The notes under the pieces were generated by a model that saw only the letters and a program-made list of their open reading frames with translations, ran no database searches and was not told where the DNA came from. This document shows, piece by piece, positions 12,703-57,694 of a DNA stretch of 64,000 nt. The stretch is taken from NCBI GenBank assembly GCA_965645245.1, contig OZ287070.1, positions 186,001-250,000 on the forward strand, in the 5' to 3' direction. Numbering within the stretch: the stretch's first letter is position 1; every line of letters begins with the position of its first letter. The DNA comes from Massalongia carnosa (taxonomy: Eukaryota). The position numbers were made by a program, and so were the translations under genes.

Positions 12703-13208
12703 ATACCACATGGGTACTAGCGCAGTAGAGGATATATAAGGGCAGGTTCGGGTTGTCGATTGTCTTTTCTCTTCTTTATCTTTATTGTATTCGTTTCTAG
12801 CGTCCCTATGACTTGTATCTAGGTAGACCATAACACAAAACACGTATCGTAAACTAATTATTCAGAAGGTTTCATATTTTCTTGTTTGATAATAAAATCA
12901 AATTCGATCTCAATATTCTCGATCGAAGACGATGAATTGATAAAAATCAATTGAAACTTCAAAAAGCAATTCGCGAGACAAAGAAAATCATATTTAATTT
13001 TTTTGAAAGCATCGTCGAGTTTTAACGAATGACGAATTTCGAAAATCTTGATATTAATGATAGCGATTTAGGCGAAGCGTTGTAGGGGGGTGGAACGGTG
13101 ATACTCTAAATTCAAATCGCTAGCGGTTCGGGAGTTGGTTCTTTTCGGCTGATACTCGGTAAAGGTAGCGGGGAAGTCAGGTGACAGTCTTTCTTTTAGT
13201 TTAGTTAT

Positions 13209-13480
13209 TGTTGAATATCCAATTCCTACCAGTACAATGAACACCTATCAGTATGGTGAATATAGCACCTACGGCTGCCCTAGATTGACAAATCATCTAC
13301 GGAAACCGTAGATGCCGCATTAGGCTTAGTCCCAAGATAAGATAAGATCACCTCGCTTAGAAGGGTGACCAGTAATAGGAAATGATTGCTGCCTAGCAAC
13401 TCTTCATCCTTAACATCACGGTCATACATACCTTTATTATTATATAGCCATATAGCGGTAGTCATATACCTATTTCAACA
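13209..13480. mobile_element. Solo LTR (TGTTGAA...TTCAACA family)
   Basis: 5-bp TSD GTTAT. Homologous copies at 62524-62809 and, partial and inverted, at 46710-46784. Confidence 0.88.
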
Positions 13481-13864
13481 GTTATAGATAGTTCTTTTCC
13501 TTTTAGAGCAAGCATGCTCGTAGCAATAGCTACACAACACATAGCATCAACACATACAGTTCACAGGCAAGAGGCATGAGGCACGAGGCGCGAGGCTTAC
13601 AGTAATCAGTCTAGCCATTGTTCTTATTCTATTGTTCTATTCTTCTCTTGTTTGTTTGTTCTCTTGCACTCCTAGCAGTAGTGGACCACGCACACTATAA
13701 GAAGGACAGTAGACACTAGTCCTTATGGGTTATAATGCTCAGTGTGACTGCTAATAGATTGGTAGGTGCTAAAGCTAAAAGCTGATTCCCTGAAGATGGG
13801 AATCGAGCTTTCTATATACCCCTTGGGGTCCTATTTACTAACTACTTGTCTGGTTACCTGTCTG

Positions 13865-28649: not shown

Positions 28650-31600
28650 TGTTAGTAGCACTAGTAGATAGAACGGGCTGTGGGCACGACTAGAGGCTAT
28701 TAAGGCCTTCGTCACTGTTAGGCACGGGACGCCTAGCCAGCCACGTGACCCCGAAAAGGGGCACACGCCTATATAGCCCACGCTCGCTACTAGCTAATAG
28801 AACAACTTTACCATCCAACTCAAGCACTGACGTAGTCATACGTCTGGTGCCACGAGTTGGGGTAAACCCACACTGATCAGTTTAGCTATTCAGATCAGAA
28901 TACCCCAATCATTAAAACCTGAAAACCTCACTATCGCTGACGATGGCAGGTTCTCCGAGCGTTGCTCCGAGCGCCGAAAACGCGATCGAGTCAACCGAGT
29001 CAACAAATCCCTTTCCCAACGGCATCGATCCGGAGACGGCCGATGCCGAGACAATCAAGAAATATATTAAATATCACTTCCAAAGATACGCAGACAATGA
29101 CTACGAGGACTACTATCTATGGAATATCGTCCAGGGAAACTTCGAGCACTTCAAAGAGGAGCATTTCAACAAATTCGATCGAGACACCTGGGAACTCGTA
29201 AAGGCCTACTGCTATCAACACGGCATTTGGATCGATCACAACTACGGGCCCGGCAGGACTCGCGCATCCTTCATGAGAAAGGCTATCAACACGGAATGGG
29301 AACTGGACTGGACTCTCGAACAAATTAAATGGGTTCAAGGACGATATAAACATCTATCCGAGAAAACCCTCGACCGAAAGCGAGAACTCATGAGCATCAT
29401 CGAGTCAGATAACCTAAATCTCATCGCTGCAAACTCGCGAGGTCTATCTGCGGATCCGAGAACACAATCGTACCAGGATACCAGACTCCAGACCCCATTG
29501 CATCAGTCTGCATCACCAAATCCGTACATACCTCAGGCACCCCTCGCGTCGCAGTCCCCACAATTTACTCAGCAGATCTCGCAACAACTGCCTCCGAGTC
29601 AATCATCGCATCAAACGCCTCATCATCAATTTCAGGAGAACTCGACCAATCAATACGCCAAGGAATTGACTCTGCTAGAGAAAATCTACAAGGATAACGA
29701 CAAGTTTAGTGGCACGGGCGACAACTTCGGTTTCAAACTCACCATATTCCTCGACAAATGCAGGCGAGTCGGACTACCTCATATCGCGTTCATTCATGGA
29801 GCCTCGATTATGCTTTCTGGTCAGGCATTGACTCATTACTATGCAAATCGAGGTTCCGCCGCGTCGTTTGATGATTTCTGTCAAACATGAGGACATTCTT
29901 TGAAGGGCCCGAGTGGGAACGCTACAATCTGGCAAAGTGGCAAACCATCTCCCTGAACGATGTTATCTCGGCCAACCCCTCGCTGTCGACAACCGAGTGT
30001 CTCAGAAAGCTATGCACCGAGCTGGACACGATATAACGAGGCATCAACACGGCATATCACGGGTCAATTCATCTGCGAGAAAACATCATTCGGGCCAGTA
30101 GGGGTCACCCAGCACTCGCGGCCGGTTTAACAAATCCACCACAGGACACACCAGGATTGGTCAATAACCTCTATGCCTCAATCGGCAATTATGAAGCGGT
30201 GCATAAGTCCGCGCAGGGGAGATATCTAGGCGAGAATGAGGACGATGAGGAGTCTTTCTTCACCGATTGGCAGTATCGCCGAGGCGGTTTCAACCCTCGC
30301 TCTCGCGGCGGACAACGTTTCAACCGATCAAGTTATTCATCTCGAAACCAGTCTCGAAACCCGTCTCGTGGCCCAATGCGTCAAAAACGCTGCTTCGTAT
30401 GCGATGAAGAAAGATGCTGGTCAACGAACCACTCATCGAAAGAACAGGAGGACTCCAAGAAGCGCTGGGGAGATAGGCATCCCAAGTACAAAAATCGCTC
30501 AGGCTATGAACGCAATCTTCGTCAATACATCGCTAATTATGAGGGCGATGATGAAGATGAAGACGAAATAGTTCACTTTTTCGGAGACCTGTCCATCGAG
30601 GCAAAAGACCCTTCTCTTGATGCAGAGGTCGCTACCGAGATGTTTCATACCTCGATTGGCACCCTTCATGCAGTTGAGTCTATTAATGCGATCAACATGC
30701 TGACCAATAAGGCCTTCGAACATCACATAACTTGGTCAGACAATACCATCGCCCCCGTCTCAGTGCCCTACAGTTTTATCACGTCAACCGACACTCGCTA
30801 CGACGAGTCCGAGTTTAAAGGGCTACTGATCGATTCCGGTGCTGCAACTCGGTCAACCGGTGGCATTGGGCAGCTAAAGGCCTTGCAGAAGATCATCTCG
30901 ATAAAACTCGACGAGACAACGGCTGGGTCAGCAAATTTCGTCTTTGGCATCGGTAGTACGTCTTCAATCGGCACGGTCAACCTGAATACCCCCATAGGAA
31001 GAATTGTCTTTCATATCGTACGAGTCAATACGCCGTTTCTCCTCTGCCTCGCCGACATGGACAAGCTAGGTGCCTTCTTCAATAACCTAACCAATCAAGT
31101 TGTTCAGGCCCAACATACTCATCCTGTGATTCGCCGGTATGGTCATGCGTTTCTTTTATGGTGCACATGCGCATATGCCCTCGCGATTGAATCATTCTCG
31201 GAAAATCCATGCTTCTTAACTACCACCGAGCTCCGCCGACTACATCGTCGCTTCGGGCACCCATCAGTCTCGCGCCTACATCGGATTCTCGAGCGATCAG
31301 GTCATGATGTCGACCTTCGAGCCCTAGAATACCTCGTTAAATATTGCCACCATTGTCAGAAGCACGGAAAGTCGCCAGGTAGGTTCGGTTTTACCATAAA
31401 AGATGACGTCGAGTTTAATTACCACATTGTCGTCGATATTCTTTACATAGAAGGCAAGGCGGTGCTGCAGTTAGTCGACGAGGCAACTCGATTTCAAGCA
31501 GGACGGTGGCTGAAGGACATTTCGGCCAGACATGTATGGGATCAGCTACGGGCATGTTGGATCGATACCTATCTCGGCCCCCCCGACCTCATCTCGGCCG

Positions 31601-34524
31601 ATGCAGGCAAACAGTTCATGGCCAGGGAATTCCGACAATATGCTGCAAACATGGGAATCATTGTCAAAAACGTCCCCGTCGAAGCGCATCACTCCATCGG
31701 TCTAGTTGAACGCTATCATGGACCACTTCGTCGAGCATATAGCATCATAACTGCCGAAATTCCCGGAATCGAGCCCGAGTTGGCCCTACAAATGGCATTC
31801 AAGGCACTCAACGACTCGGTAGGACCGAATGGTCTAGTTCCGACGTTGCTTGTGTTCGGTGCCTACCCGAGAATGACTGAAATGGATGCTCCCTCGCCTA
31901 CAATCACCCAACGCACGATAGCCATGAGAAAGGCTATGGAGGAGGTACGCAAGCTGCATGCATCTCGTCAGGTTAATGATGCATTGAACACTCGAAACGG
32001 CCCGTCCACCACCTTGATTCACGACTTGCCCATCAATTCGCCGGTGCTAGTATTCCGAGAAGGCAATGCAGGTCGATCAGGGACGTGGAAGGGACCATAC
32101 AAACTTCTCAGCCTACAAGGCGAGTCAGCTATCATCGAGCTGTCGAGCGGACCCACCAAATTCCGTTCCACCTCGTTGAAACCGTACTACGACCTTGCTG
32201 CTGATGGCATGAAGGATACAAATAAAGATGAAAAAGATGACGAAAGCGCAGGAGACGCCGACGTTGGTGCAGGACGTATAGATGATGGTACAGGAGATGC
32301 CTCATCTATTAACCCTCGCACCTCGGGACATGTTCCCTCGATCGATGCAAGAGACACCCCTCCTACGAATCCCCTCGTCTCGGGAATCATTGCCCCGACT
32401 GCCTCACCTTCATCAGCACCATCAGCACCAGTCAAACGTGGCCGTGGAAGACCCAGAAAGCATCCCGAACATGTCAATTTCACTACGCCTTCCAACATCT
32501 GCTTCGTCATCGATACTCCTGAAGATAATGATGACGACATCTCGAAATTACCCCAATTCACCTCATCGAGGCAAAAGGAAGTCGCCGGACTTCTAGAAAA
32601 AGGTGTATTCAAACTCGTAAATTCTGAAGACGTTCCAGATGACGCACGCGTTTTCAACTCGAGGTTTGTTGACGAAATAAAGAATCCTGGCACCGATAAG
32701 GCTTTCGAGAAATCACGTCTGGTCGTACAGGCCTACAATGACCTCAATAAAGACCTCGTTCTGACACAGTCACCGACAATTCAACGAGTCAGTCAACGTC
32801 TTATCATCTGCCTCACAGCAACATTTCAAAACGAGTCAACAAAGCTATACCTTCGCGACGTCACTCAGGCATACGTTCAATCAAATTCCGAGTTGAATCG
32901 TGACTTTTACATCCGCCCGCCTCATGAACTCACGGCGATGATGGGAGCTCCATCCAACTGCATCCTGAAAGTCATAAAACCTCTCTATGGCGTCCCGGAA
33001 GCAGGCAATCATTGGTTCGCCACGTATCATGCCCATCATACTAGAAAACTCGGCATGACCGAGTCAACCTACGATCCATGCCTACTCTACAAATCCGAGC
33101 CTTTTGGCATCGTTGGCCTACAAACTGACGACACCCTTATGCTAGCAAGCGACACCTTTTCGGCCGAGGAAGAAGATGCTATCAAGAAGGCTAAGATCAT
33201 GACTAAAGAGCGCACTCATCTCATCCTCGAAACCCCAATCAAGTTCAATGGCACCATGATCCGACTCGCCCCGAGCAGAGACATCATGTTGACCCAGGAA
33301 ACTCGTGTTGGAAGCATCTCGCTGGTTAAGAATCATGACGCCTCGACAACTAGCTCGCGAGGCATCGTTCGAGAAAAGTTGTCTTCGAGAGAGCAATATG
33401 TGGCCCAACGAGCTAGAGGTGCATACACAGCTTCCATCTGTCAGCCCGAGGCCTCTTTCGATCTATCTTATGCCGCTCAGTCAACAAAGTTCTCCTCAGA
33501 TGATATCAATGCCCTAAACAAGCGACTTAAGTGGCAAATAGAAAATCAATCCCGAGGGCTGAAATAGGTCAAACTCGATCGAAACAGCCTTCAGTTGGTC
33601 GTTTTCACCGATTCATCCTTTGCCAACAACCGAGACCTCTCATCACAAATCGGTTATGTCATATGCCTTGCTGACTCGACTGACAAAGCCAACGTCATTC
33701 ATTGGTCATCAATTAAGTGTAAAAGGGTGACGCGGAGTGTCTTGGCCGCCGAGCTATATGGCATGGCACATGGGTTCGATATCGGGGCCGTCATAAAGGC
33801 AACCCTTAGCAAACTTCTCGGAACCGACATTCCACTGATTCTCTGCACAGATTCAAAATCGCTATATGACTGCTTAGTAAAACTCGGGACGACCCAAGAG
33901 AAATGCTTAATGATTGATGTCATGAGTCTCCGTCAGTCATACGAGAGACGTGAGGTGACCGAGGTGAAATGGATTCATGGCCACAACAACCCCGCCGACT
34001 CCATGACCAAGACAAAGGCATCCTCGGCCCTCAAAACGGTGATTGATACTAATCGCATCAACCTAGATACGACCGAGTGGGTAGAACGAGCATCAGGCTG
34101 TAGGGCGGCGATAAAATGGCAGGCTGATGATGTTCAATGAACCTGAGGCCGCGCTATGTCAGTTGCGAGTTGGGTTGAGTGAGACGCTATATGAGGCCTC
34201 ACACAGGCAAGCAAAGCCGGGCGTAGGGGGACAGCAGGCATAGATGCAACCCGGCATCGAGGCATAGAGGGGGTTTATTTCGTTTTTCTAAGTGGTTCCA
34301 GTGTTAGTAGCACTAGTAGATAGAACGGGCTGTGGGCACGACTAGAGGCTATTAAGGCCTTCGTCACTGTTAGGCACGGGACGCCTAGCCAGCCACGTGA
34401 CCCCGAAAAGGGGCACACGCCTATATAGCCCACGCTCGCTACTAGCTAATAGAACAACTTTACCATCCAACTCAAGCACTGACGTAGTCATACGTCTGGT
34501 GCCACGAGTTGGGGTAAACCCACA
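28650..34524 (+). mobile_element. Full-length Ty1/Copia retrotransposon, GalEa-like
   Basis: Identical 223-bp LTRs (28650-28872, 34302-34524), TSD CAAAT, order gag-PR(IDSGA)-IN-RT(QTDD)-RH(TDSKSLYD), CTGATCAG hairpin instead of a PBS. Confidence 0.95.
28943..34140 (+). pseudogene. GalEa-type gag-pol polyprotein with a frameshift (~29885) and a stop (33565)
   Basis: ORFs 28943-29890, 30157-33567 and 33595-34140; CFVCDEERCWSTNH knuckle; AT-hook KRGRGRPRK between IN and RT. Confidence 0.9.
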
Positions 34525-36164: not shown

Positions 36165-36656
36165 TGTGAAGGGTGGAGTGGGACTCCACCGGGTCGGTGG
36201 CAAGTGAGGTGATGAGTCAGGTATTGGTCATGTGGTCGGGTGCTGGCGTCTTGGCGTTCCGGTTATATGAGTCTTTTTCTGTAAGACGTATGCTTCTACT
36301 CAGAGGGCGTGTTGGTCACGTGAAGGGGGTGTCTCAATAATGTATGTTATTGATCTATGCCCTTAGAATAAGGTGGGCATCGACCTCTTTATCCTACAGA
36401 CGTGTCTCCCCCTAAGACTCCTTTATCGGATAGCCCCCAGCTATCTGATTGGTCCAAATGGCTCCCGGCCCCTTTGGGCGGTTAGTGCCATCCGACATGG
36501 GTTTCCAGCCGTCCCCCTCGCCAGCCGTCCCCCTGAGACGGCATGTGGCCGACAGCGGAATCAGCCTATTAGGGTCGGGCCGGGTTCGGCGGCCGAGTCC
36601 ATGCTGATGCCCCTTTTCCGTATCCTTCTCCGTAGTCTCTATGGCAGGTCCTGACA
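36165..36656. mobile_element. Possible solo LTR
   Basis: TGTGAAGG...CCTGACA termini; flanks gacgc/aatgc differ by two transitions. Confidence 0.4.
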
Positions 36657-42463: not shown

Positions 42464-43650
42464 CACGCGGGTGACAAAAAAATTTTACTCACAAATTTTG
42501 ACCCCACCAAGCCATCAAAGTTTGACCCCTATTTGCATCGTGGTACCACAATATTATTATTGCTACTCCTACTATCAATAACCCGTCATCGCACCGTCAC
42601 CATCTATCACCGCTTGCAGCCGTTTCGGCATCTCAGCCACCTTGCTATTGATGAAATTTTGCGAAACTGTGGCCCACCCCTCATGAATCAGTCCTACCGT
42701 GGTGGCCTCATCCCAATGAGGGAATTTGCGAATATACTGCTTGGGTGGCTACCAGCAATTTTCAATAGGTGAGAGATCAGGAGACGAAGCACAGTTGCCA
42801 TTTTCTTCCTTCCATTTGCGTACGATATTGTTTTTACTAGTACCGTGCCCTGAATCACCATCTTCTTTCAGACAGAAATCATCACCTCTGTCAAGCCACG
42901 GCTTGACGACAGGCTTCAAAATTTGATCAATATAGACCCTTTGACTCATCTTTCCATTAGTGTTGCCCGGAACGTCGTATAAACGAATGTCTGACTTGAA
43001 ATTGTGGCCCACAGCAGCCCAAGCATGCTTTTTTTTTCAAGTCTTTTTCAGTTGATTCGTTCGTTTCTTGAAGACAATCTTGACAGTATCGTTGACCCGG
43101 CTTGCGAATAATGCGAATTTTCCCCTGAGGCCCATAGCTATAATGCACCTCATCGCTGAATCGTACAGAAAACCAGTCTTTATCATCAGGATATCTTTCT
43201 TTCATGACGATAGCCCATTCAAAGCGACGTTTAGCCGTCGATTCGCTGACCCAGCCCTTTCTACATGCAATGCATTTATGATAATTCATCGTACCCATAA
43301 CTCTCTGAATTGTACGACCACTGCACTCCAGTCCCACCTCGTAGCCCAATTGAACCCACGTTAACCCGCGAGCCTCCATGCCTTCTGTCTCCAAAATACG
43401 GTCCATCTCTCGTATGTGTCTCGGGGTCACAATTGAATGACGTCCACGTGTTTCAGGAATGTCGGCAATGTGTCTAGTACGACTGGAATTTTCTCTTGTC
43501 AACATTTTCCAGCCAGCTTGTTTTGAAGTGCCGAAAACACGAAAAACATCTTCTTTGAAATAAGGAATCTTCATCGCATCTGAATTTTGGCCCGTGTGGG
43601 GGTAGGATGATGGGTCTGAGCCTCATGCGACTCCAAAACAGGTGTGGTAG

Positions 43651-46591
43651 TGAAGAAGGGTAGTCGTGCGTGCTAATGGAAGGTGGTGGTACGTGATGAT
43701 AGATGGCGAACTGAGCAGTGAACATACATACACACACAAACGTCTGAATGGACCTACGACTGCATAGACATGAAAAGAACTCGACGACTGAACGACTGAA
43801 CGACTAGTTGATGCAACGAAATGAACGTGTGTCGATGACTACGTGACACGACGATGATGATGACAGCGTAGGTGATAGAAGATGATGTCCGGAGATGATG
43901 AAGAAAACGCCAGCAAAAAACCCGTTTTATCCCCACACAGGCCTGCCATGTCACCTGACCATAGATGACACATGTCGCCCCACCACATAGCCTCACACCC
44001 CAAAGATGCCGTCCCCTGGCATCTGTCAACACTTCGCCAGCTCACCTCACTTGACCAATCAGAACTCGTCTCTGAGCCCTCGCCTCGCCTCTAGTCTGTC
44101 CGCCTTACTAGTCTGCCCTGCGGGCCAATCACAGCTCACATGATCACGTCACATGTGAAAAACATGACCCACATCGACCCCTATCCGCTGCTGAATAGCC
44201 TCCATCATCGTCACTATTGCCTGCCAGCCCTCGGGGGTAGACACGAACTGAATAAATCGTTGTTGACTGACTGATGGGTCTGTTGACGGTGATCCGGACG
44301 ACTGCATGGAGTTAGCCTGAGGCGGAATGAACGCACCGCTCGCCCGATAGGCCTCAAATGTTGACGACGTGACCGTTTCAGGTAATGGCAAGGCATCAAC
44401 CGGTGGTGCAGCTGGTAGGGCTGATGATAACGACGGAGGTGCTGACGGTGCTGGTGCTGACGCTGACTGATTAGATAGGCCGGGCCTGTCAAATGGAGTG
44501 GAACAATATGAAGCCGGAGATGCAGGTAGTGTCCAGCGCGTACGTTTTGCACGTCTAGCCCGTGCGTGCCTAGCTCGGTCTGACTGCCATGGCCCTGACC
44601 TACATGAAGGTGGAAACGACCTCACTCGATTGGCTGACACGGTGGCACTAGCTGAAGATGAACTTGACCGTGCGAGAATTTCTTTCACTTTCGTCAGCAA
44701 TTCGGTCAAAATCTCTCGACCCACGACAGTGTGCAGCAATATTTTCGTGTTATCAGCACCTGCTAGTTGACATAGGGTGTCCGAAAGGGGAAGACTGGAC
44801 AGTCGACACATAGGAACTATCCAGGTGGAGGCCTGCAAATATAAAAATCCTAGTGCCTGACGGGAGATAGATGACTGAATGAGAGGCAAAGTAGACAGAT
44901 ATTCTTCGATATTTGACGAAACGAAGGCTACTGAATGAACGAATGATGACGCTGAAGGGGACGGTGATGCTGAACGCAATGGTGATAATGAACGGGAAGG
45001 TGCTATATAGTCGTCAATTTCGACGTAGCTGACGTCCGGAAGGCGTCCGGCCATAGCTAGCTCCACATTGACCTCAGAGGCTGAATGAAATGATGTTGAT
45101 TTTGGCCTTTCCGGCCCCTTTTTTGATGACTCAATGACTGACTTAGTGTCAGCAGACGCAGTGACAGTAGACGCAGTAGACGCAGCGGACTCAGTGGTCG
45201 GCCTTTCCTCGGCCCGCGCTAGCTCAGTGCTAGAACCAGGTGCTGAACGTAAAATTGCTGATTTTGGCCCTTCCGGCCCACGTGTAGATGACTCAATTGC
45301 TGACTCAGTGTCAGCTGACTTGATAGCGGTGATGACAGGTGCCGAAGACACGGCAGAACGAAAAGCGGTGACGGGTGACGGTGGTGCGGTGGACGGTGCA
45401 GACATGAACGGTGCAGACGGTGCAGATGGTGCAGACATAGTGACCGGTGGTGACACGGCGACTGCTGGACAAATAGGCAGCGATTCTGGACAGTTTGTAT
45501 GGGCCACATAGGCCTTTTGTGCCCCATATTTCGCGAACAATTCCTCCATGCTCATGTATGACCTTGTTGATGCAACCGAAGCAGTTGATGATGACACTGA
45601 CGGTGCTGATGAACTGACAGACGATGCCCTCGACACGGAGATGGACCGGCGCTGTCTCGGCAGATGACGTCGCTGTCGCTTGCTCATAGGTGCGCTGGGT
45701 GAAGAAGAAGAAGCAGATAAAGATGAAGATGTAGATGGAGGTGCACTAGTGCTAGAGGTTGGTTCACTAGTGGTGGACGTGGAAGTGGACGACTCGGACG
45801 ACTCGGAGGCAGAAACGGATGCTCTTTTGGTAGGCCTACCACGTTTCGCTCGATTATGGTGTCGCTGTCGTTGACGTGCTCGTTTTGATGGTAGTGGAGT
45901 AGGTGAGGTCGGTCTAGTACTCTCGGACACGGTCGCATTGGCCCAAATGCAGAAAGTAAAGCACGAGGACATGGCCATCAGTGCAGTGAATAGAACGACT
46001 AGCCATTCCCAGAAATGGACGTCTGGAACGCATGCAGTCGGTGAAACGGTAACGGTAGCGGTAGCGGTGGTAAAGAAGCTGATGGGGGCCATGATGCTCG
46101 ATTTGGTGCTGAAGGACTCGGTCGTGCACGGTCGGAGGTGGAGTAGTCAGAGTGATCAGAGGTGCAAAACAAGGAGGTTTTTCGACGTTTGATGCTCAGT
46201 TCAACCGCTCAATTGCACCAGTACAATCATATATCGCACCGTGGTCGCCAATGAAGAAGGGTAGTCGTGCGTGCTAATGGAAGGTGGTGGTACGTGATGA
46301 TAGATGGCGAACTGAGCAGTGAACATACACACACACACACACAAACGTCTGAATGGACCTACGACTGCATAGACATGAAAAGAACTCGACGACTGAACGA
46401 CTGAACGACTAGTTGATGCACGAAATGAACGTGTGTCGATGACTACGTGACACGACGATGATGATGACAGCGTAGGTGATAGAAGATGATGTCCGGAGAT
46501 GATGAAGAAAACGCCAGCAAAAAACCCGTTTTATCCCCACACAGGCCTGCCATGTCACCTGACCATAGATGACACATGTCGCCCCACCACA
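43651..46591 (-). mobile_element. Non-autonomous LTR retroelement (2941 bp) with a single non-gag/pol ORF
   Basis: Direct repeats 43651-43987 and 46252-46591 (TG..CA, nearly identical), 4-bp TSD GTAG, PBS TGGCGACCACGG (46239-46250, minus), purine-rich ggggtgtgagg before the 3' LTR. Confidence 0.92.
44149..46092 (-). CDS. 647-aa hypothetical protein: N-terminal hydrophobic helix, basic patches, S/T/P-rich disorder, 54-aa internal duplication
   Basis: Uninterrupted 1944-nt ORF filling most of the internal region, in sense with the PBS. Confidence 0.75.
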   Translation of the reverse strand: MAPISFFTTATATVTVSPTACVPDVHFWEWLVVLFTALMAMSSCFTFCIWANATVSESTRPTSPTPLPSKRARQRQRHHNRAKRGRPTKRASVSASESSESSTSTSTTSEPTSSTSAPPSTSSSLSASSSSPSAPMSKRQRRHLPRQRRSISVSRASSVSSSAPSVSSSTASVASTRSYMSMEELFAKYGAQKAYVAHTNCPESLPICPAVAVSPPVTMSAPSAPSAPFMSAPSTAPPSPVTAFRSAVSSAPVITAIKSADTESAIESSTRGPEGPKSAILRSAPGSSTELARAEERPTTESAASTASTVTASADTKSVIESSKKGPERPKSTSFHSASEVNVELAMAGRLPDVSYVEIDDYIAPSRSLSPLRSASPSPSASSFVHSVAFVSSNIEEYLSTLPLIQSSISRQALGFLYLQASTWIVPMCRLSSLPLSDTLCQLAGADNTKILLHTVVGREILTELLTKVKEILARSSSSSASATVSANRVRSFPPSCRSGPWQSDRARHARARRAKRTRWTLPASPASYCSTPFDRPGLSNQSASAPAPSAPPSLSSALPAAPPVDALPLPETVTSSTFEAYRASGAFIPPQANSMQSSGSPSTDPSVSQQRFIQFVSTPEGWQAIVTMMEAIQQRIGVDVGHVFHM

Positions 46592-46709
46592 GTAGCTCTA
46601 TTCATGGCTAAATGATGGTGTATAAAATGTGGTGGTTGAAAAGGGGTCAAATTTTGATGGTTTGGTGGGTTCAAAATTTGTGAGTAAAATTTTTTTTGTC
46701 ACCCGCGTG

Positions 46710-50576: not shown

Positions 50577-53370
50577 TTAAGCTCCCCCTAACATGTACAC
50601 GTATCCCAGGATCGATTTCCTTTCCAGTCTGTCGGCCGCATAGTCTGAGTCGGAGTATCCGCCGAGGTTCTGATTCCCCCTAGTCCCGTATAGTATGCCG
50701 AGATCGATGGTGGATCGTACGTATCTAAGGAGCGCTTTGAGAGCGTGACCGTAATGGATGGCAGGATCGCTCAGATATTGGCTTAGTCTCCCGAGAGCAA
50801 ACGCTATATCCGGACGCGTATGAATTGCTGCGTACATGAGGCTTCCAACGATCTGTTGATACTCTCTTTGATCTATGCGCTCGTCGTCTTGTCCAGCTGG
50901 TCGTAGCGAATCGTAGCGGTTCATGGGAATTTCGGTAGGCCTATGCTTGTCAGCGCTCATGTGTGTTCGCTCCATCACATCTTTGAGGTAGTGCGTTTGA
51001 TCCAATCGCAGTGTGCGATTCTTGCGGTCGCGGGTGACTCGAATGCCGAGAACCTTTGAGGCTTCTCCCAAATCCTTAATGCTGACGGCATTGTTGAACT
51101 CCCTTTTGAACCAGTCGATGTCTTTCATTATCTTGGCGGCTATCACTAAGTCATCTACGTGCATGAATATAATGGCATTTCTGGTGAGGTGAGTGAAGAG
51201 GCATGGGTCGGATGAACATTGTTCGAATTCCAGTTTGATCAGTTCATTAGTGCAGCGATTATGCCACTCTCGGGCGGATTGCTTTAGACCATACAAGCTT
51301 TGCAGTATCTGAAGAGCTCTGCCAGGGGCGACCCTGACTCCTTCTGGTGCAGTCATGTAGATAGTATCATTTAGAGATGATTGGGTGAATGCATTGTTCA
51401 CGTCTACCTGATGGCATTCCAAATCTTCCAAGGCTACTATGGCGAGTACTGCGCGCAGGGTGTCTGATCTCACCGTAGGAGCGAAAGTGTCCTCATAGTC
51501 GATGCCGTATTTCTGGGTGAATCCGCGGGCGACTCCGTTTTGAATGGACATGTGAGGTACGGTGTATTGTGGGATGATACCAATTGAGGCACACCATTCG
51601 TCCAATGTGGCCTTCAATTTGGTGGCCTTCAATTCGGTGGCATTATCGCTTCGCACGGCCAGCAATCTTTGCGCACTTTGCAGCTCGACCTTTAGTCTCC
51701 ACTTCCGTAATTCTCCTGGTGCTTCTTCTCGTTTCTTAAGCGGGATGGACCATATCTTTCTGGAGTAGTTGTCTACGTTTTCCAGGAAGTAGGTGTATCC
51801 TTCTTGAGCGGCAGGTAGGGGACCGCAGATGTCAATCGAGACCAATGCTAGTAAGGAAGTCTTTCGCTCGGTTGCCTTGCCTTTCCTATTGGTGAGTTTG
51901 GTGAGAGCGCATACCTCGCAGGCATATTCCTCGTTGCTAATTGGAATCGGCTTTTCTAGAGTGGTTACCTTGTGCAGGTTGCGCAGCTTTTCTCGACCCA
52001 GATGAGCGAATCTTCGATGCCATAGCCTGTATGTTTCGGAAGTCTTGTTGGGGGCGGGCGTGGACGTTGTTTCGATATCCATGGAAGTTGGCAAATCCGC
52101 GCCGCGCGGCTATGACCTATCTGGGGAAGATAATGGTACCTGGTGGTTCTCTTTGCTTGGAAGGGCAATATCATGATGCATGGATGCGGTTAAAGCAAAT
52201 TCATCGAGATCTTTTGCTATTCTCTCGACGATATATACTCCCCCTCGCTGCCGTGCTTCTAAGATCTCTTTGCCCTGCTTATCGTGCATGCGTAACCCGT
52301 GCTGATTGAAACTTCCAACGAGATTCTCGCACATTCGCTTGCCAGATAAAAGATTGACCCCCAACTTTGGGACGTAAAGAAAAGAAGAAAGAAATCCCTT
52401 ATTACCGTACTTGTCCTGTATCACACATTTGCCGCGACGATCGGCATATAGCTCTCCTCCGCCGACCTTTATTCTTCGTCTCTTGATTCTGGTCAGAGGT
52501 TCACTGAATAAATGAAGTGCGTCAGTCATGTGAGATGATGCGCCAGAGTCAGCTACCCATTTTGATCTGGGGATCTTACTGACTGCTTCCCCAGAGAGAG
52601 CTGCAGTTTCCTCAAGATCATCGAGATCATCATCATCGTAGCAGGGTGTGAAGTCTTCTTCTTCTTCATCCTCCTTTTCTGACTCACCGGCGAGATAACT
52701 CCGATGGCGTTTGGTGGGTTTCTTGCCCTTGCCGGACTTCTTCTTTCTTGCCAGACCTATGGCGTACAGCCGGACGCTCTCTAGGAATTCACAGTCCCTT
52801 ATCCGATGGGATTCGTCTCCGCAGATGTAACAGCCTCTTCTCACTTCCTTCTTGTTCTTCGTTTCTTTTCTTGAGTTCGTGGAGGTTTCGCGTTTGGGGT
52901 GTGCACTGTGACTTCTGAATGGATTGAATGGCCTTCGCTCTTGATTCTGCTTTGCAAGTAGGGCTTCTTCGGCCTTTGAGTGCGTTAACTGCATTTCCTT
53001 GTCTTCCAGTCTCTTTATGCCAATTTCGACATCTATTCCCCCGATTGCGTCGATGCCATCTCTGATGGCGGTGTATTCAGCAGGGAGGGATTGTAGAAGC
53101 AGTTGGAATAGTTGTTGAGCTGGAAATGCGTTTGCTAGCCTAGGCGTGGCTATGATGACTTTATCTCTTAACAATAGGAGTTCCCCCCATGCCTTCTGGA
53201 TGCTGGTGCTTTCGTCCATTTTATAGGTCACCAGCTCCTGAAGGTACTGTCTTCCCGATGTTGGAAGGATATTGTTATATTTAGAGAACAGTGAGGCCCA
53301 CTTTTGTGCCGCTGTCTTTAACGCCCTTACGCGTTCTTGGTCAAATTGACCTAGGCAGATAGTAGTAATT
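50577..53370 (-). mobile_element. Truncated, internally deleted Copia of the same family as 37258-42463
   Basis: Clear protein similarity across gag-PR-IN-RT; integrase core fused directly to RT; no LTRs. Confidence 0.9.
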
Positions 53371-56300
53371 CGGCTAGGGCGAAAAGTAATGCCGGGACCG
53401 AGTGGAGGCAGGCCGTGGATAGCCAACGAAGGCCGAAGGCCGAAGGAGGATGATGTCCAAATAGTTGGACAAGGAGGGGAGAGAAAGGGCATAAATAGGT
53501 GGCCTTTTGGCACTCTTCTCCTCATCATCACCATTGATTCGGAGTTCAGCACCAAAAGGTCTTTTGAAAGTCTTTCCCGAATTAAAAATATCTGTCAATC
53601 ACCCACCCTCAACCCCATCATTCTAAATCACCTCCATTTCTCATCCTATATTACCTCCCACACTGAGCCCATCATGCCTTCCCATCGCCCTCAAAGAATC
53701 ACCAAGCCTTCCGCCCGCTCCGGAAACACCTCCGGGCCTGGTCAACGTCTCACTCGTTCCACCCGACCCCCTGGGGGAGGGGCCATAGTTCCAGAAACAC
53801 AGCCTCCTCCGAAACACTCAAGGTTCGGAAGGAACACTTCGGGGCGATGTGATAGACGTCCACCGAACACCGGAACCAACCCCGAACCTGCTGTTGGACC
53901 TCAGGGCTCAGCAGGAGGCCATGGCGACAGCCCTCAGGCAGGAGACCCGTCACCTTCAAAGGCAAATCGCCGAAAACTTGACGGCTATTCAGCGCATAAG
54001 GGAAGGAAACACAGTCCCGAGGGTAGGCAGGAAGCACACACTCCCCACCCGAACCAGCTACTGCCTGCTGAAACTGAAGGTACGGATCTATGTCTCCTTC
54101 CTCTAATTATCGAGTATCCCGCCATAAACAGCATTTATTTCCGACAAATTTTGAACAACAAATTCGATCCCATAAATATTTCCAAGCTCTGCACCGATGT
54201 AGTCTTAATCAAACCAACTGTCAAACGAGTGAACCTGGCCAAAGGATACGAATTAATACAAAAAGAAGACGATGCGTCACCAGGAGACATCAAGGGACTA
54301 CCTCACCTGATTCGCTGCCTCGGGGTGTATTGGCAGGTTTTGCTTCATTCGGCACCATCCGGAATAAAAGACAGCCTTTGTAGGGCCTTTCAAATCTATC
54401 AGGACCGCTTGTTGTTACATTACACCATCTACACTTGGGAGTCAGTACGAGTGTTTCATATAATCTTCCACAGGGGTCTGGTGTACCAGGGAGTGAACGA
54501 CCCGGCCGGATGGAGGAGAAGCGACACCACCGTCGAAAACATGTACCTTACTCGACGGACACCTAACTTGTCCATGACGGGAGGTACCACCAAGCTGCAC
54601 CCGGGATCATTTCCGGTAGGCGGCTCCATTGAACCAAAGCCTATGTCCTGCAATCGATACAACGCAGGGCGGGAATGCAAGGACTGCAGGTACCCTCACG
54701 TCTGCAGTCTCTGTTTCGGCCATCACACAAAAAACAACTGCCCCAAGGCACATATCAGCAACCCAAATTTCATGTCAACAGGTAGACGAGATTGACTAGC
54801 CGGCCCATTTGATCATATCGCCGAAGGGTTCCCCTATCCGCTGATAGATAAATCAGCAATCGTGCCCTCAGGGCCTCTAAGAAAAGAAGGCTGGGAACTT
54901 CACCTCATGGGTCATCCGGACAAAATTTACAAACAGATCATTCACGATATAATCGTGTACGGGGCCAAAATTGGTTACACCGGCCCAGATCAGTTCATTC
55001 TAAGCAGCAACCTGGCCTCGGCCAATGAGGCGCCAGAAATTCTGACCATGGACGTAGAGGACCAAAGGGCCAAAAACCGATTGATCGAGGTGCCCACCCT
55101 ACCAGCCAAATATATATGCTCCCCCTTAGGCCTGGTCCCCATAGCAAACGGAGGATGGCGCCGTATTCATCACCTCTCCCACCCCGAGGGTAATTCGGTG
55201 AACGACTTCATTCCCGAGGAATGGGGCACTCTGGAATATATCACTTTCGACGAAGCCCTCGCCGGCGTCAGAAGAATGGGCAAGGACTGCGTACTGATCA
55301 AACGAGATCTAGCCGATGCCTTTCGGCACGTTCCAGTGGCGCAAAGCGATTGGTGGTTGCTGGGTTTTTGTTGGAACGGGGTTTACTGGATAGAACGCTT
55401 TCTTCCATTCGGCCTCAGGACGTATCCCTTCTTGTTTGACTTATTCGCGAAAGGTCTGAACTGGATGATGATTAATAAAACAAATGGCGAACTTATTCAC
55501 TACTTGGACGATTTTCTCGGAATCGTTCGCGCTATTCCCGATGCGGTATCCTTCGATCGGAACTTTGCCGAAATTTGTTCAGACCTCGGCCTAAAAATCA
55601 ATGAAAAGAAAAATAAACAAGGCACGGTAGTCGAATTCCTGGGCATAGAGCTGGACACACACCTGATGCACGACTACCGGCCGAAAAGCTTCAGAAAGCT
55701 AAGGATTTCGTCCAATCAACATTGAATAAATCCACGATAACCAGAAACGAGCTAGACACTCTGCTGGGATTTCTGTGCTTTGCAGCCAAAGTGGTGTTTC
55801 AACAGTAAAATCGGGCCCGCACGCCCATTTATTCATATCAATTCTCACATAAAAGCTGATTTTTTATGGTGGCATCATTTTCTTCCATTATGGAACGGCA
55901 TACACATTATTAGCCCTTCGAGACCCCTGCTCCGTCTCTGGACGGATGCCAGTGGGGACTTCGGAATCGGGGCATACATACTTCAAGGTGGTCAGACCAC
56001 ACACACATTGCCCGCTGAGCAAGTGGTTTCTGAACGTTATACCACCAGGCTCAGAGCCAAAAATATCAATGAGAAGGAGATGACAGCGATTCTGCACTCC
56101 ATACGGCGGTGGCTCCCCATGTGCAAGGGAGCTCATCTTCTTCTTTATTGCGACAGCTTTGCTGTAATGTCCGGGGTCAAAAAGACCTCCATTCGGGGCG
56201 GGGCCATGCATCCCCTCCGGAATATCGCCATGATGGCGGCAATATATGAAATTGAGATTGAACCACACTGGCTGTCTACCAAAGAAAATTTCTTAGCAGA

Positions 56301-56580
56301 TTGGTTGTCCCGAGGACTATTTGGAAAAATCGCTGACAATTACCCCAACCTGCAGGGCATTTCATCGAACAAATAACGGCGTCACTCGCCCGCGACCCTC
56401 CAGAGACTTGGTATAACGAGGTTCCGCTGGATCGCCGAGCAGCCAGATATTTATGGTGGGGCATAGCAATTAGGACTCGAGGGCTATACGAAGCAGCCCG
56501 GAAAAGCTACACGACCCACTGTCAATTGGCAACGAATTTCCCTCCCTTTCCAGCGACAATTCGAAGCCTTTCGGCATGGA
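53371..56580 (+). mobile_element. DIRS/Ngaro-type tyrosine-recombinase retrotransposon, 3'-truncated
   Basis: gag-like ORF; RT (DLADAFRH, LPFGLR, YLDDFLG); DIRS-type RNase H (WTDASG, INEKEM, ENFLADWLSR); start of an overlapping YR N-terminal region (RAARYLWWG..FPAT). Confidence 0.85.
53674..54795 (+). CDS. Ngaro-type gag-like protein with C-terminal zinc fingers
   Basis: Open frame ending CNRYNAGRECKDCRYPHVCSLCFGHHTKNNC directly upstream of the RT. Confidence 0.7.
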   Translation: MPSHRPQRITKPSARSGNTSGPGQRLTRSTRPPGGGAIVPETQPPPKHSRFGRNTSGRCDRRPPNTGTNPEPAVGPQGSAGGHGDSPQAGDPSPSKANRRKLDGYSAHKGRKHSPEGRQEAHTPHPNQLLPAETEGTDLCLLPLIIEYPAINSIYFRQILNNKFDPINISKLCTDVVLIKPTVKRVNLAKGYELIQKEDDASPGDIKGLPHLIRCLGVYWQVLLHSAPSGIKDSLCRAFQIYQDRLLLHYTIYTWESVRVFHIIFHRGLVYQGVNDPAGWRRSDTTVENMYLTRRTPNLSMTGGTTKLHPGSFPVGGSIEPKPMSCNRYNAGRECKDCRYPHVCSLCFGHHTKNNCPKAHISNPNFMSTGRRD

Positions 56581-57694
56581 GGCTATGTTCACCTTGGCTC
56601 CGTCGACCAACATGCCCTTGATCTGATTGAAAGCACCGTCATACTCTGCACTGTATTGACCTACGGTTTCAAAATCTCTCATCCTTTTTGCACTGACCCT
56701 CAAGATGACATCCGTGATGCTCATTGGTGCTACGTCCTGGAATCTAGTCTTCAGGGTTGCCCACATCTCGGCAGCAATTTTGTTGTTGATGAGGTTGAAA
56801 TGGCATGGCGCAACCAGTCCGTGTATGATTCCAATAGCCTTGGTCATCGCAGTCTTCTGTCTGTTCATGTCATCCCGAAGTTCTTTGACAAGGATGCTGG
56901 TAGTAAGACTGGCTTGACTGAAGCCTTAGTCGATGAGGCTCTGTCGGATGAAATCAAGTGTAATATCTGGTTGGGTCTCCAATATGGCTGTATCGCAGTT
57001 GTTCTTCAGCAGAACTCCTCTGGTGTAGCTAGCCCATGCCGAATAGTGCTCTGGCTTCTCTAGAAGATAGGACTTCTCTGTGGAACTGATGCCATCTGGG
57101 AGAGACATGATGGAAAGAGGTGTCTAAGTAAACTTCTGTGATTTTTTGATAAATATCTAAGTTTCTGAGGTAAACACGGAAGTAGGATGTACACTGGAAT
57201 GAATGGAGAAGATGGGGATACGTGGTCATTATACAGACAAACGATCCCTCTCTGCGACATCAAACTGTGTTGTTCCTTATTTGCCACAACGCTTTTACCC
57301 TCATGAAAGACTTTCATTCAGTGGTGGAATTTTCACTTGGTTGTGTGAAGATAGGGGCGTTCTGAACCATGGCTATACCGATCTATTTAACAGGCCGGGC
57401 CTGTTAAATGGAATAAGGTTTTTTCGAGGTCTGTAACTACCAATACCGAGACTTTGAGGCGTTCTGCTTATTGAAAGTCTGATTACTTCTTGGAACTGAA
57501 ATTTCCGAGGCCTGTCTCTGGGTCAAGATAGGTGATACAGCAGAAATCAGACCTTAAAAGATAGTTCAGATGGTCTGCCTCTGAGTCAAAGTTAGTTGAG
57601 TGAGTCAGACTGAGATCTGCCTCTGGGTCAACGTCAGTCAAATGATGATGCAGCAAGAATCAGAGTTTAGAAGTGATCTGTTCTTGGGTCACGA
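56581..57694 (-). mobile_element. Copia 5' fragment (partial LTR, leader, gag N-terminus)
   Basis: LEKPEHYSAW..AIGII..AEMWATLK gag-like motifs; LTR end (TGTTAAA on plus) at 57402. Confidence 0.65.

Follow-up and report, generated by a model that had tools for sequence, protein, structure and literature searches.

We analyzed a 64,000-nt stretch of the Massalongia carnosa genome (contig OZ287070.1, positions 186,001 to 250,000; here the window, to which all coordinates refer) and conclude that a long terminal repeat (LTR) retrotransposon inserted in it is a protein-coding satellite matched to a specific helper, a variant form of nonautonomous LTR element. The element is one copy of a family that we call family A, and its 2,264-bp interior is nearly filled by a single open reading frame (ORF). 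Its short end signals and its target preference match those of H1, a Ty3/gypsy family found elsewhere in the genome; a second satellite, family B, is matched to a second helper, H2. The reading that we tentatively favor is that the element is a nonautonomous satellite of H1 and that its own protein serves chiefly as a cis-acting address tag.

The insertion had been proposed in a first-pass annotation of the window. Its LTRs, primer binding site (PBS), target site duplication (TSD), and ORF were all found again, on the minus strand. The features of the element, including the polypurine tract (PPT) region, are as follows.

43651-46591, minus strand: family A element, 2,941 bp, LTRs with TG..CA ends
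46252-46591, minus strand: 5′ LTR, 340 bp; its last 24 nt (U5/att end) are identical to those of H1 at 21 of 24 positions
46251, minus strand: spacer between the 5′ LTR and the PBS, 1 nt, as in H1
46233-46250, minus strand: PBS TGGCGACCACGG, 18 nt, complement of the 3′ end of the host tRNA-Arg(UCG)
44149-46092, minus strand: ORF (P0001), 647 aa, rich in Ser, Ala, Pro, and Thr; homologous to the family B ORF P0002 (470 aa)
44005-44023, minus strand: hairpin before the PPT, 19 nt, identical to the hairpin of helper H1
43988-44004, minus strand: G-rich plus-strand primer tract at the position of the PPT
43651-43987, minus strand: 3′ LTR, 337 bp
46592-46595: TSD on the 5′ side of the element, GTAG on the plus strand; the joint of the empty site agrees
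43647-43650: TSD on the 3′ side of the element, GTAG on the plus strand
42476-46696, minus strand: interrupted Tc1-type DNA transposon (context only), terminal inverted repeats at 42476-42533 and 46639-46696, Pfam match

The two LTRs are nearly identical, as had been noted: the differences are a 4-nt deletion and one substitution, both in a CA/TG microsatellite, plus a 1-bp indel. The PBS lies 1 nt inside the 5′ LTR, where it had been placed, with its length corrected here to 18 nt. A tract does precede the 3′ LTR, but the description "purine-rich" suits it poorly; it is a mixed G-rich 17-mer with a conserved hairpin before it. The 4-bp TSD was borne out (GTAG on both sides), and a 5-bp reading gave a mismatch. 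Four public runs from a single study, made up of contigs of unrecorded type, were compared; in three of them the contigs pass over exactly 2,945 nt, the length of the element plus 4 nt, and the four letters at the joint fit either side. These contigs may derive from other copies of the interrupted Tc1-type transposon, which has a Pfam match to HTH_Tnp_Tc3_2 (E 8.6e-7, below the curated cutoff). The statement that the other LTR elements of the window have 5-bp TSDs held for the single one examined (28650-34524, CAAAT). The interior of the element contains no CCHC motif and gave no Pfam match to gag, protease, reverse transcriptase (RT), or integrase, in agreement with the first reading.

Elsewhere in the genome, family A is a multicopy family without pol. 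A genome search gave 47 matches, with the best 40 of 104 candidates scored. Thirteen of 17 locus records gave an interior running from PBS to PPT, and the other four were dropped because the PBS or PPT was unreadable; two of the 13 represented one locus, leaving 12 copies. There are thus at least 12 PBS-to-PPT copies along with many solo LTRs, and the ORF is open in 4 of the 12 (603 to 654 aa). LTR pairs are 0 to 26 substitutions apart, and therefore the activity of the family spans old to very recent. Solo-class LTRs carry a 4-bp TSD in 18 of 21 cases and a 5-bp TSD in 0 of 21. The older copies show an excess of C-to-T changes at CpA resembling that of repeat-induced point mutation. The PBS is an exact 18-nt complement of a tRNA 3′ end, including the added CCA; the matching gene, at C14, was called as tRNA-Arg(TCG) by ARAGORN, so that the proposed search for a host primer ended in a match at 18 of 18 nt. 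Family A accordingly has LTRs, a PBS, a PPT, TSDs, independent insertions, and no pol, as a nonautonomous LTR retrotransposon does.

Several individual copies are of interest in their own right. One copy (L017, C4:2573929-2576715) has a 162-nt in-frame deletion, a 603-aa open ORF, and LTRs that differ at 3 of 332 sites; therefore, part of the linker is dispensable. An intact copy (L002, C8:2172945-2175901) has unmatched flanks (GTAG/GCAT), as do some H1 copies, which suggests recombination between copies. An old, decayed A-like copy (L217:965-1285) with about 77% DNA identity still has a visible hydrophobic-helix block, and therefore the lineage predates the main A copies. A truncated copy lies inside a block repeated on three contigs (L031, L032, and L033) at 99% identity, where its neighbor is either a retroelement of the tyrosine-recombinase type or a frame of 2,188 codons.

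The annotation had postulated a pol-encoding helper with the same ends, and one sharing the PBS, the U5 end, and the 4-bp TSD was found elsewhere in the genome. A pattern of LTR end plus PBS matched the genome 46 times, and the 19 loci outside family A comprised 13 of H1 and 6 chance matches. The full PBS pattern matched 76 times (control, 0); of 42 unassigned matches, 40 were retrieved, and these were 30 of H2, 3 of H1, 4 of a further family, H3, and 3 that could not be placed. H1 is an 8.3-kb Ty3/gypsy family, and H2 is 8.7 kb. ORF1 of H1 (960 aa) has a protease at its end, ORF2 (1,191 aa) contains RT, RNase H, and integrase, and a third ORF is present; by Pfam, the domain order is the protease-RT-RNase H-integrase order of Ty3/gypsy elements, with no match to a chromodomain. 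H1 and H2 are 32% identical in Gag, which aligns over 842 aa, and 62% identical in Pol (over 1,192 aa). In both helpers, the heptamer TTTAAAC stands directly before the ORF1 stop codon and pol lies in an overlapping frame (L040, L119), which makes the heptamer a likely candidate for a −1 frameshift site. The third ORFs, which follow pol, are homologous in the two helpers (about 29% identity; L042:7896-9011, L119:8199-8711), have no Pfam match, and are internally deleted in many H1 copies. The single named relative of the helper Gag comes from Peniophora, which, like the changes at CpA, points to a fungal host. The helpers may be Ylt1-like elements, that is, nonchromovirus fungal Ty3/gypsy elements. 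H3 (L088, L100, L102, and L107; also L123 and L131) is 7.1 kb long and has LTRs of about 172 bp without TG..CA ends and the same 18-nt tRNA-Arg PBS.

Family B was found through its 470-aa protein, the only homolog that the databases gave for the A protein (29% identity, E 1e-29), which comes from the same genome. It is encoded there four times, in three complete elements and a decayed fourth. The complete elements are 2,385 bp long, with 332-bp LTRs (0 to 1 mismatches), 4-bp TSDs, and the same PBS; the LTR interiors of A and B are not alignable.

Each satellite shares its end signals with one helper. The last 24 nt of U5 are identical at 21 of 24 positions for A and H1 and again at 21 of 24 for B and H2, versus 10 to 12 of 24 ungapped (14 to 17 gapped) for the four cross pairs. 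The spacer between LTR and PBS is 1 nt in A and H1 and 2 nt in B and H2. Over the 40 nt before the PPT, identities number 31 for A-H1, including the identical 19-nt hairpin, and 29 for B-H2, versus 22 to 25 for the cross pairs. The first 18 nt of U3 are identical at 16 positions between B and H2. DNA shared by A and H1 is limited to two pieces, one of 41 nt (95%) at the U5 end and PBS and one of some 50 nt at the PPT, and B shares the corresponding pieces with H2. The PBS, identical at 18 of 18 nt between A and H1, cannot pick the partner, because H1, H2, and H3 all use it. Copies with 0 to 1 LTR mismatches exist in all four families.

Target preference is an integrase signature independent of the end signals. 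We scored the central dinucleotide of the target at solo LTRs with matching TSDs and at the left flanks of PBS-bearing LTRs, using the best-scoring LTRs only and excluding unmatched solos (3 for A, 7 for B, 5 for H1, and 1 for H2). TA was central in 27 of 35 targets of A and 16 of 23 of H1, compared with 0 of 19 for B and 0 of 33 for H2. CG was central in 16 of 19 targets of B and 18 of 33 of H2 and only in 1 of 35 of A and 1 of 23 of H1. By this measure, A is indistinguishable from H1 (p 0.55) and distinct from H2 (p 4e-12). A and H1 thus share an identical PBS, the LTR termini (U5), the PPT region, and a 4-bp TSD, the features by which the wheat elements Quinta and Cereba were recognized as partners. 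No DNA or protein similarity between the interiors of A and H1 was found beyond the end signals, so the element is not a simple pol-deletion derivative, an outcome that, together with a Gag capsid fold, would have undone the original proposal. On their sequences, the two pairs would fit codivergence and swapping of ends alike.

If the ORF is maintained by selection, its indels should preserve the frame. Distinct indels in the ORF were in frame in 24 of 26 cases, versus 4 of 24 in an LTR control of 36 sequences (Fisher p 6e-8); outside the microsatellite, 1 of 14 LTR indels was a multiple of three. Among 11 A copies (one near-duplicate was dropped, and the method ignores transition bias), 15 stop codons were singletons and 2 were shared, and the ratio of nonsynonymous to synonymous change (omega, or dN/dS) was 0.69 for shared changes and 1.00 for singletons. 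By region, omega was 0.51 to 0.59 in conserved blocks and 0.77 to 1.15 in linkers. Between A and B, identities at codon positions 1, 2, and 3 numbered 140, 155, and 104 of 227. The in-frame indels and the blocks conserved between A and B uphold the earlier claim of a selected ORF, and the comparisons support a frame that is strongly selected with weak amino acid constraint, in which a few blocks would matter and the linkers hardly at all.

The blocks of the orphan protein are given below, together with a sequence that is conserved at the nucleotide level. Models are graded by predicted local distance difference test (pLDDT).

45943-46011, minus strand: N-terminal hydrophobic helix (aa 28-50), predicted membrane anchor, Kyte-Doolittle 2.2 in A and 2.4 in B
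44677-44895, minus strand: four-helix core (aa ~400-472); the orthologous domain of B has pLDDT 76
44551-44601, minus strand: Arg-rich motif with a W (aa 498-514), A and B identical at 13 of 17 aa and at 7 of 17 third positions
44158-44268, minus strand: helical block at the C terminus (aa 609-645), A and B identical at 16 of 37 aa
44470-44496, minus strand: degenerate copy of a 27-nt palindrome also present in B, in H2 pol, and in unrelated repeats; its conservation is at the nucleotide level and not at the protein level

Of the long blocks, the hydrophobic helix is the one best preserved between A and B, with 21 of 36 aa identical over aa 18 to 53; the next-best hydrophobic window after it scores 1.2 in A and 1.9 in B. 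A strongly basic stretch follows the helix in A and is absent from B. In the core, 13 of 20 residues identical between A and B are encoded by different codons, and the Arg-rich motif is a candidate RNA-binding segment. The linkers are long and rich in Ser, Ala, Pro, and Thr. Env-like proteins have a signal peptide, a large ectodomain, and a C-terminal membrane anchor and are encoded after pol. The suggestion that the ORF is env-like is therefore not supported, since the protein has one N-terminal hydrophobic helix and no large ectodomain with a C-terminal anchor.

Searches with the protein led back to the two families. The whole A protein matched only family B of the same genome, and residues 200 to 470 of B matched only themselves. 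A profile search of 1.84 billion representatives gave five matches, three of them A/B copies and two spurious and repeat rich. The ESM Atlas returned nothing usable for B or for residues 390 to 647 of A, and a sequence search of the PDB gave no match. Pfam gave a subthreshold DUF6535 match on the hydrophobic helix of A and none for B, and Rfam gave one subthreshold match. In the M. carnosa genome, all 47 matches to the B protein (best candidates scored) were A/B copies or the one decayed A-like copy, with no host parent among them. No relative outside the two families was found in these database searches, for which the profiles were shallow. The model of the whole A protein has a pLDDT of 37. 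A fold search with an 88-aa core (pLDDT 76), a small helical bundle, gave a best Z of 6.3, no match at E ≤ 0.001, and no capsid among the matches listed, a result that says little for a domain of this kind. Derivation of the ORF from the third ORF of the helpers found no support (hhalign probability, 0.5%).

The palindrome has a one-base center; a 20-nt pattern of it, with at most 1 mismatch allowed, matched the genome 160 times (control, 0). The 23 contexts examined fall into six unrelated flank groups that include a copia-like leader, H2 pol, and the A/B ORFs; sites include 44470-44496 and 57385-57412 of the window, L218 to L235, and the 5′ end of H2 pol. It may be a host-protein binding site reached convergently by several transposon families. 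As a helper-specific packaging signal it was rejected, given these occurrences in unrelated repeats also and the fact that A shares it with H2 and not with H1.

We propose a mechanism in three steps, which we hold with unequal confidence. In the first, very probably, the element RNA would be primed by tRNA-Arg(UCG), copied by H1 RT, and inserted by H1 integrase. Dependence on a helper follows from the anatomy of the element and established LTR biology, and dependence on H1 in particular from the H1 end signals that it keeps and the H1-type targets at which it lands. In the second, the single ORF would probably be translated, and selection would act on it as the element itself spreads. The third step is put forward tentatively: the N-terminal helix might direct the translating ribosome, and with it the element RNA, to the membrane of the endoplasmic reticulum (ER), where helper Gag would gather the translating RNA into particles as for Ty1. 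The basic motif and the helical blocks would hold RNA or contact helper particles, the long frame would shield the RNA from nonsense-mediated decay, and satellite B would act likewise with H2. Yeast Ty1 RNA, as described in the cited passages, is translated with the signal recognition particle and arrives at the ER; it nucleates sites of assembly, and its packaging shows no preference in cis (PMC3945221; review, PMC4974528). By extension from Ty1, a satellite encoding a signal anchor could reach assembly sites without making Gag. We favor a role in cis: if each transposing copy profits from its own product, the selection acting on its frame is most readily accounted for.

A number of observations weigh against this proposal. 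Expression and localization of the A protein are predictions from its sequence, and the Ty1 model, which comes from a copia-type yeast element, would have to carry over to gypsy helpers. An address tag acting in cis does not by itself explain the conservation of the helical core and the C-terminal block. The ORF is broken in 8 of the 12 copies. The difference between shared and singleton changes reaches only p 0.064 (Fisher), and the dN/dS comparison suggested by the first-pass annotation came out on the side of constraint in the conserved blocks but not between intact copies, where omega is 0.76 to 1.17 and speaks against strong amino acid constraint. The codon-position pattern is biased by alignment at the protein level, and slippage on repeats of 3n may explain some of the in-frame indels. 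A positive-inside charge pattern is present in A (+11) and not in B (−2). Finally, the first 18 nt of U3 are identical at only 11 positions between A and H1, on a background of 10 to 11.

Alternatively, the helper dependence could be the same and the protein could act in trans: it would bind the Gag or the RNA of the helper, or else a host silencing factor, and tilt packaging or expression toward the satellite. Phage satellites bias packaging and expression in their own favor in a similar way. We regard this as rather unlikely, although the conservation of soluble blocks (the core, the Arg-rich motif, and the C-terminal helices) speaks for it, and the divergence of A and B (29%) resembles that of H1 and H2 Gag (32%), as expected if the protein tracks helper Gag. 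A product acting in trans would also serve broken copies and so weaken selection on the frame, yet the frame is strongly kept; moreover, two pairs cannot show coevolution, and swapping of ends gives the same pairing. A predicted complex of the H2 capsid region with the C-terminal half of B, modeled without alignments, scored 0.00, which speaks neither for nor against this reading.

That the ORF is an extremely diverged gag, as the annotation had offered, and the element a TR-GAG or Quinta-type supplier of capsid protein, is improbable. The ORF does occupy the gag position and fill the interior, its helical blocks and basic motif would suit a Gag, and gag-only partners are known (PMC11302176, PMC13570524). 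The lack of a Pfam match is itself weak evidence, since the capsid part of genuine helper Gag escapes Pfam as well. In profile-profile comparison with the helper Gag family, hhalign gave a probability of 0.25 to 0.26%, with shallow profiles (effective sequence number, 1.2 to 1.4 versus 2.5). By tblastn, the Gags of H1 and H2 still align with each other over 842 aa, whereas A and B gave only the short shared palindrome. The Cys/His knuckle of the helpers is missing from the orphan protein, its ordered blocks total about 110 aa interrupted by about 130 aa of low-complexity sequence where the helper capsid region is contiguous over about 200 aa, and helper Gag has no N-terminal membrane helix.

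Translation alone might matter, with the open frame avoiding nonsense-mediated decay or keeping the RNA on ribosomes and the protein having no role. Very strong frame selection with weak amino acid constraint is what this would predict, and one apparent protein motif proved to be a nucleotide palindrome; even so, we consider it quite improbable, since blocks including the hydrophobic helix are conserved despite synonymous divergence, as the core illustrates, and short noncoding elements succeed without any ORF. Least probable is host-directed cargo unrelated to the replication cycle, either a captured host gene or a membrane-active selfish factor: the membrane helix and known gene capture by LTR elements (maize Bs1; PMC7264820) allow it, but no host parent was found among the best candidates scored in the genome and no outside relative in the databases searched, and most inserted copies decay, which argues against selection at the level of the host.

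Returning to the satellite reading with a cis-acting protein, a broader form of it is possible, if speculative: satellite retrotransposons would be an old lineage in which a dedicated, non-Gag, membrane-anchored protein hijacks particle assembly of a specific gypsy helper, and which split in step with its helpers (A-H1 and B-H2). If true, the lineage would be the LTR-element counterpart of the phage or virus satellites equipped with hijacking proteins of their own. Should the protein guide the RNA that encodes it into helper particles, it would show how an LTR-element parasite competes for packaging, and that elements of this kind can be satellites with a protein-coding gene and need not be decayed products of deletion.

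Other material in the window touches these families: an interrupted solo LTR of H2 lies at 13081-13695 and a family B LTR fragment at 36168-36280. Frames at 53350-56376 carry RT and RNase H motifs and resemble those of DIRS/Ngaro elements, to which they may belong.

Nonautonomous LTR elements frequently have no traceable partner; in sugar beet, this is so for 61 of 115 families (PMC13570524). Here, two satellite/helper pairs in one genome are matched by four short signals and integrase target preference, and they isolate a minimal, testable set of cis signals for cross-mobilization. The satellites keep a gene that is not recognizable as gag, env, or a host gene. Literature searches, whose coverage did not extend to Repbase or most subscription journals, listed no comparable element. 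The "distinct class" of the first-pass annotation stands in so far as there are two protein-coding satellite families; it is restricted to a single genome, and the searches found no relative from another species.

Among known systems, the helpers resemble nonchromovirus Ty3/gypsy elements in domain order and in giving no chromodomain match, and Ylt1-like elements have been reported in fungi (PMC3248453, PMC5014426). What sets the helpers apart is the split between gag and pol, with TTTAAAC ahead of the gag stop, and their third ORF. Miniature terminal-repeat retrotransposons (TRIMs) and large retrotransposon derivatives (LARDs), including fungal Helenus, also have LTRs, a PBS, and a PPT, are moved in trans, and have been assigned partners from PBS and TSD length; unlike A, they are noncoding and <1 kb or >4 kb, and Helenus has 5-bp TSDs and depends on copia elements, according to the passages cited (PMC10886601, PMC13570524). 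Family A is 2,941 bp long and has a 647-aa ORF under selection, which places it outside both TRIM (about <1 kb) and LARD (>4 kb). The orphan ORF is element borne, as are the extra ORFs described for LTR retrotransposons and the maize element Bs1; in the cited accounts such ORFs are of unknown function and some have transmembrane segments, and, unlike that of A, they either accompany gag-pol or are host genes acquired by transduction (PMC7264820, PMC11963269). In A and B, the orphan ORF is the only gene, and the helpers' own third ORF does not match it. TR-GAG elements are likewise nonautonomous and retain one ORF and no enzymes, but as characterized in the cited text they are defined by a GAG ORF (PMC13570524), to which no homology was found in A or B. 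The closest parallel is the wheat pair RLG_Quinta/RLG_Cereba, in which a short partner without RT or integrase keeps an intact ORF, forms two diverged lineages, and has its PBS, LTR termini, and PPT region in common with one autonomous gypsy family; its ORF, as presented there, is clearly GAG, accompanied by a domain whose function is unknown, and originates from Cereba (PMC11302176). Unlike Quinta, A and B have no detected Gag homology, share 20 to 40 nt per end with their partners, and each match a different helper.

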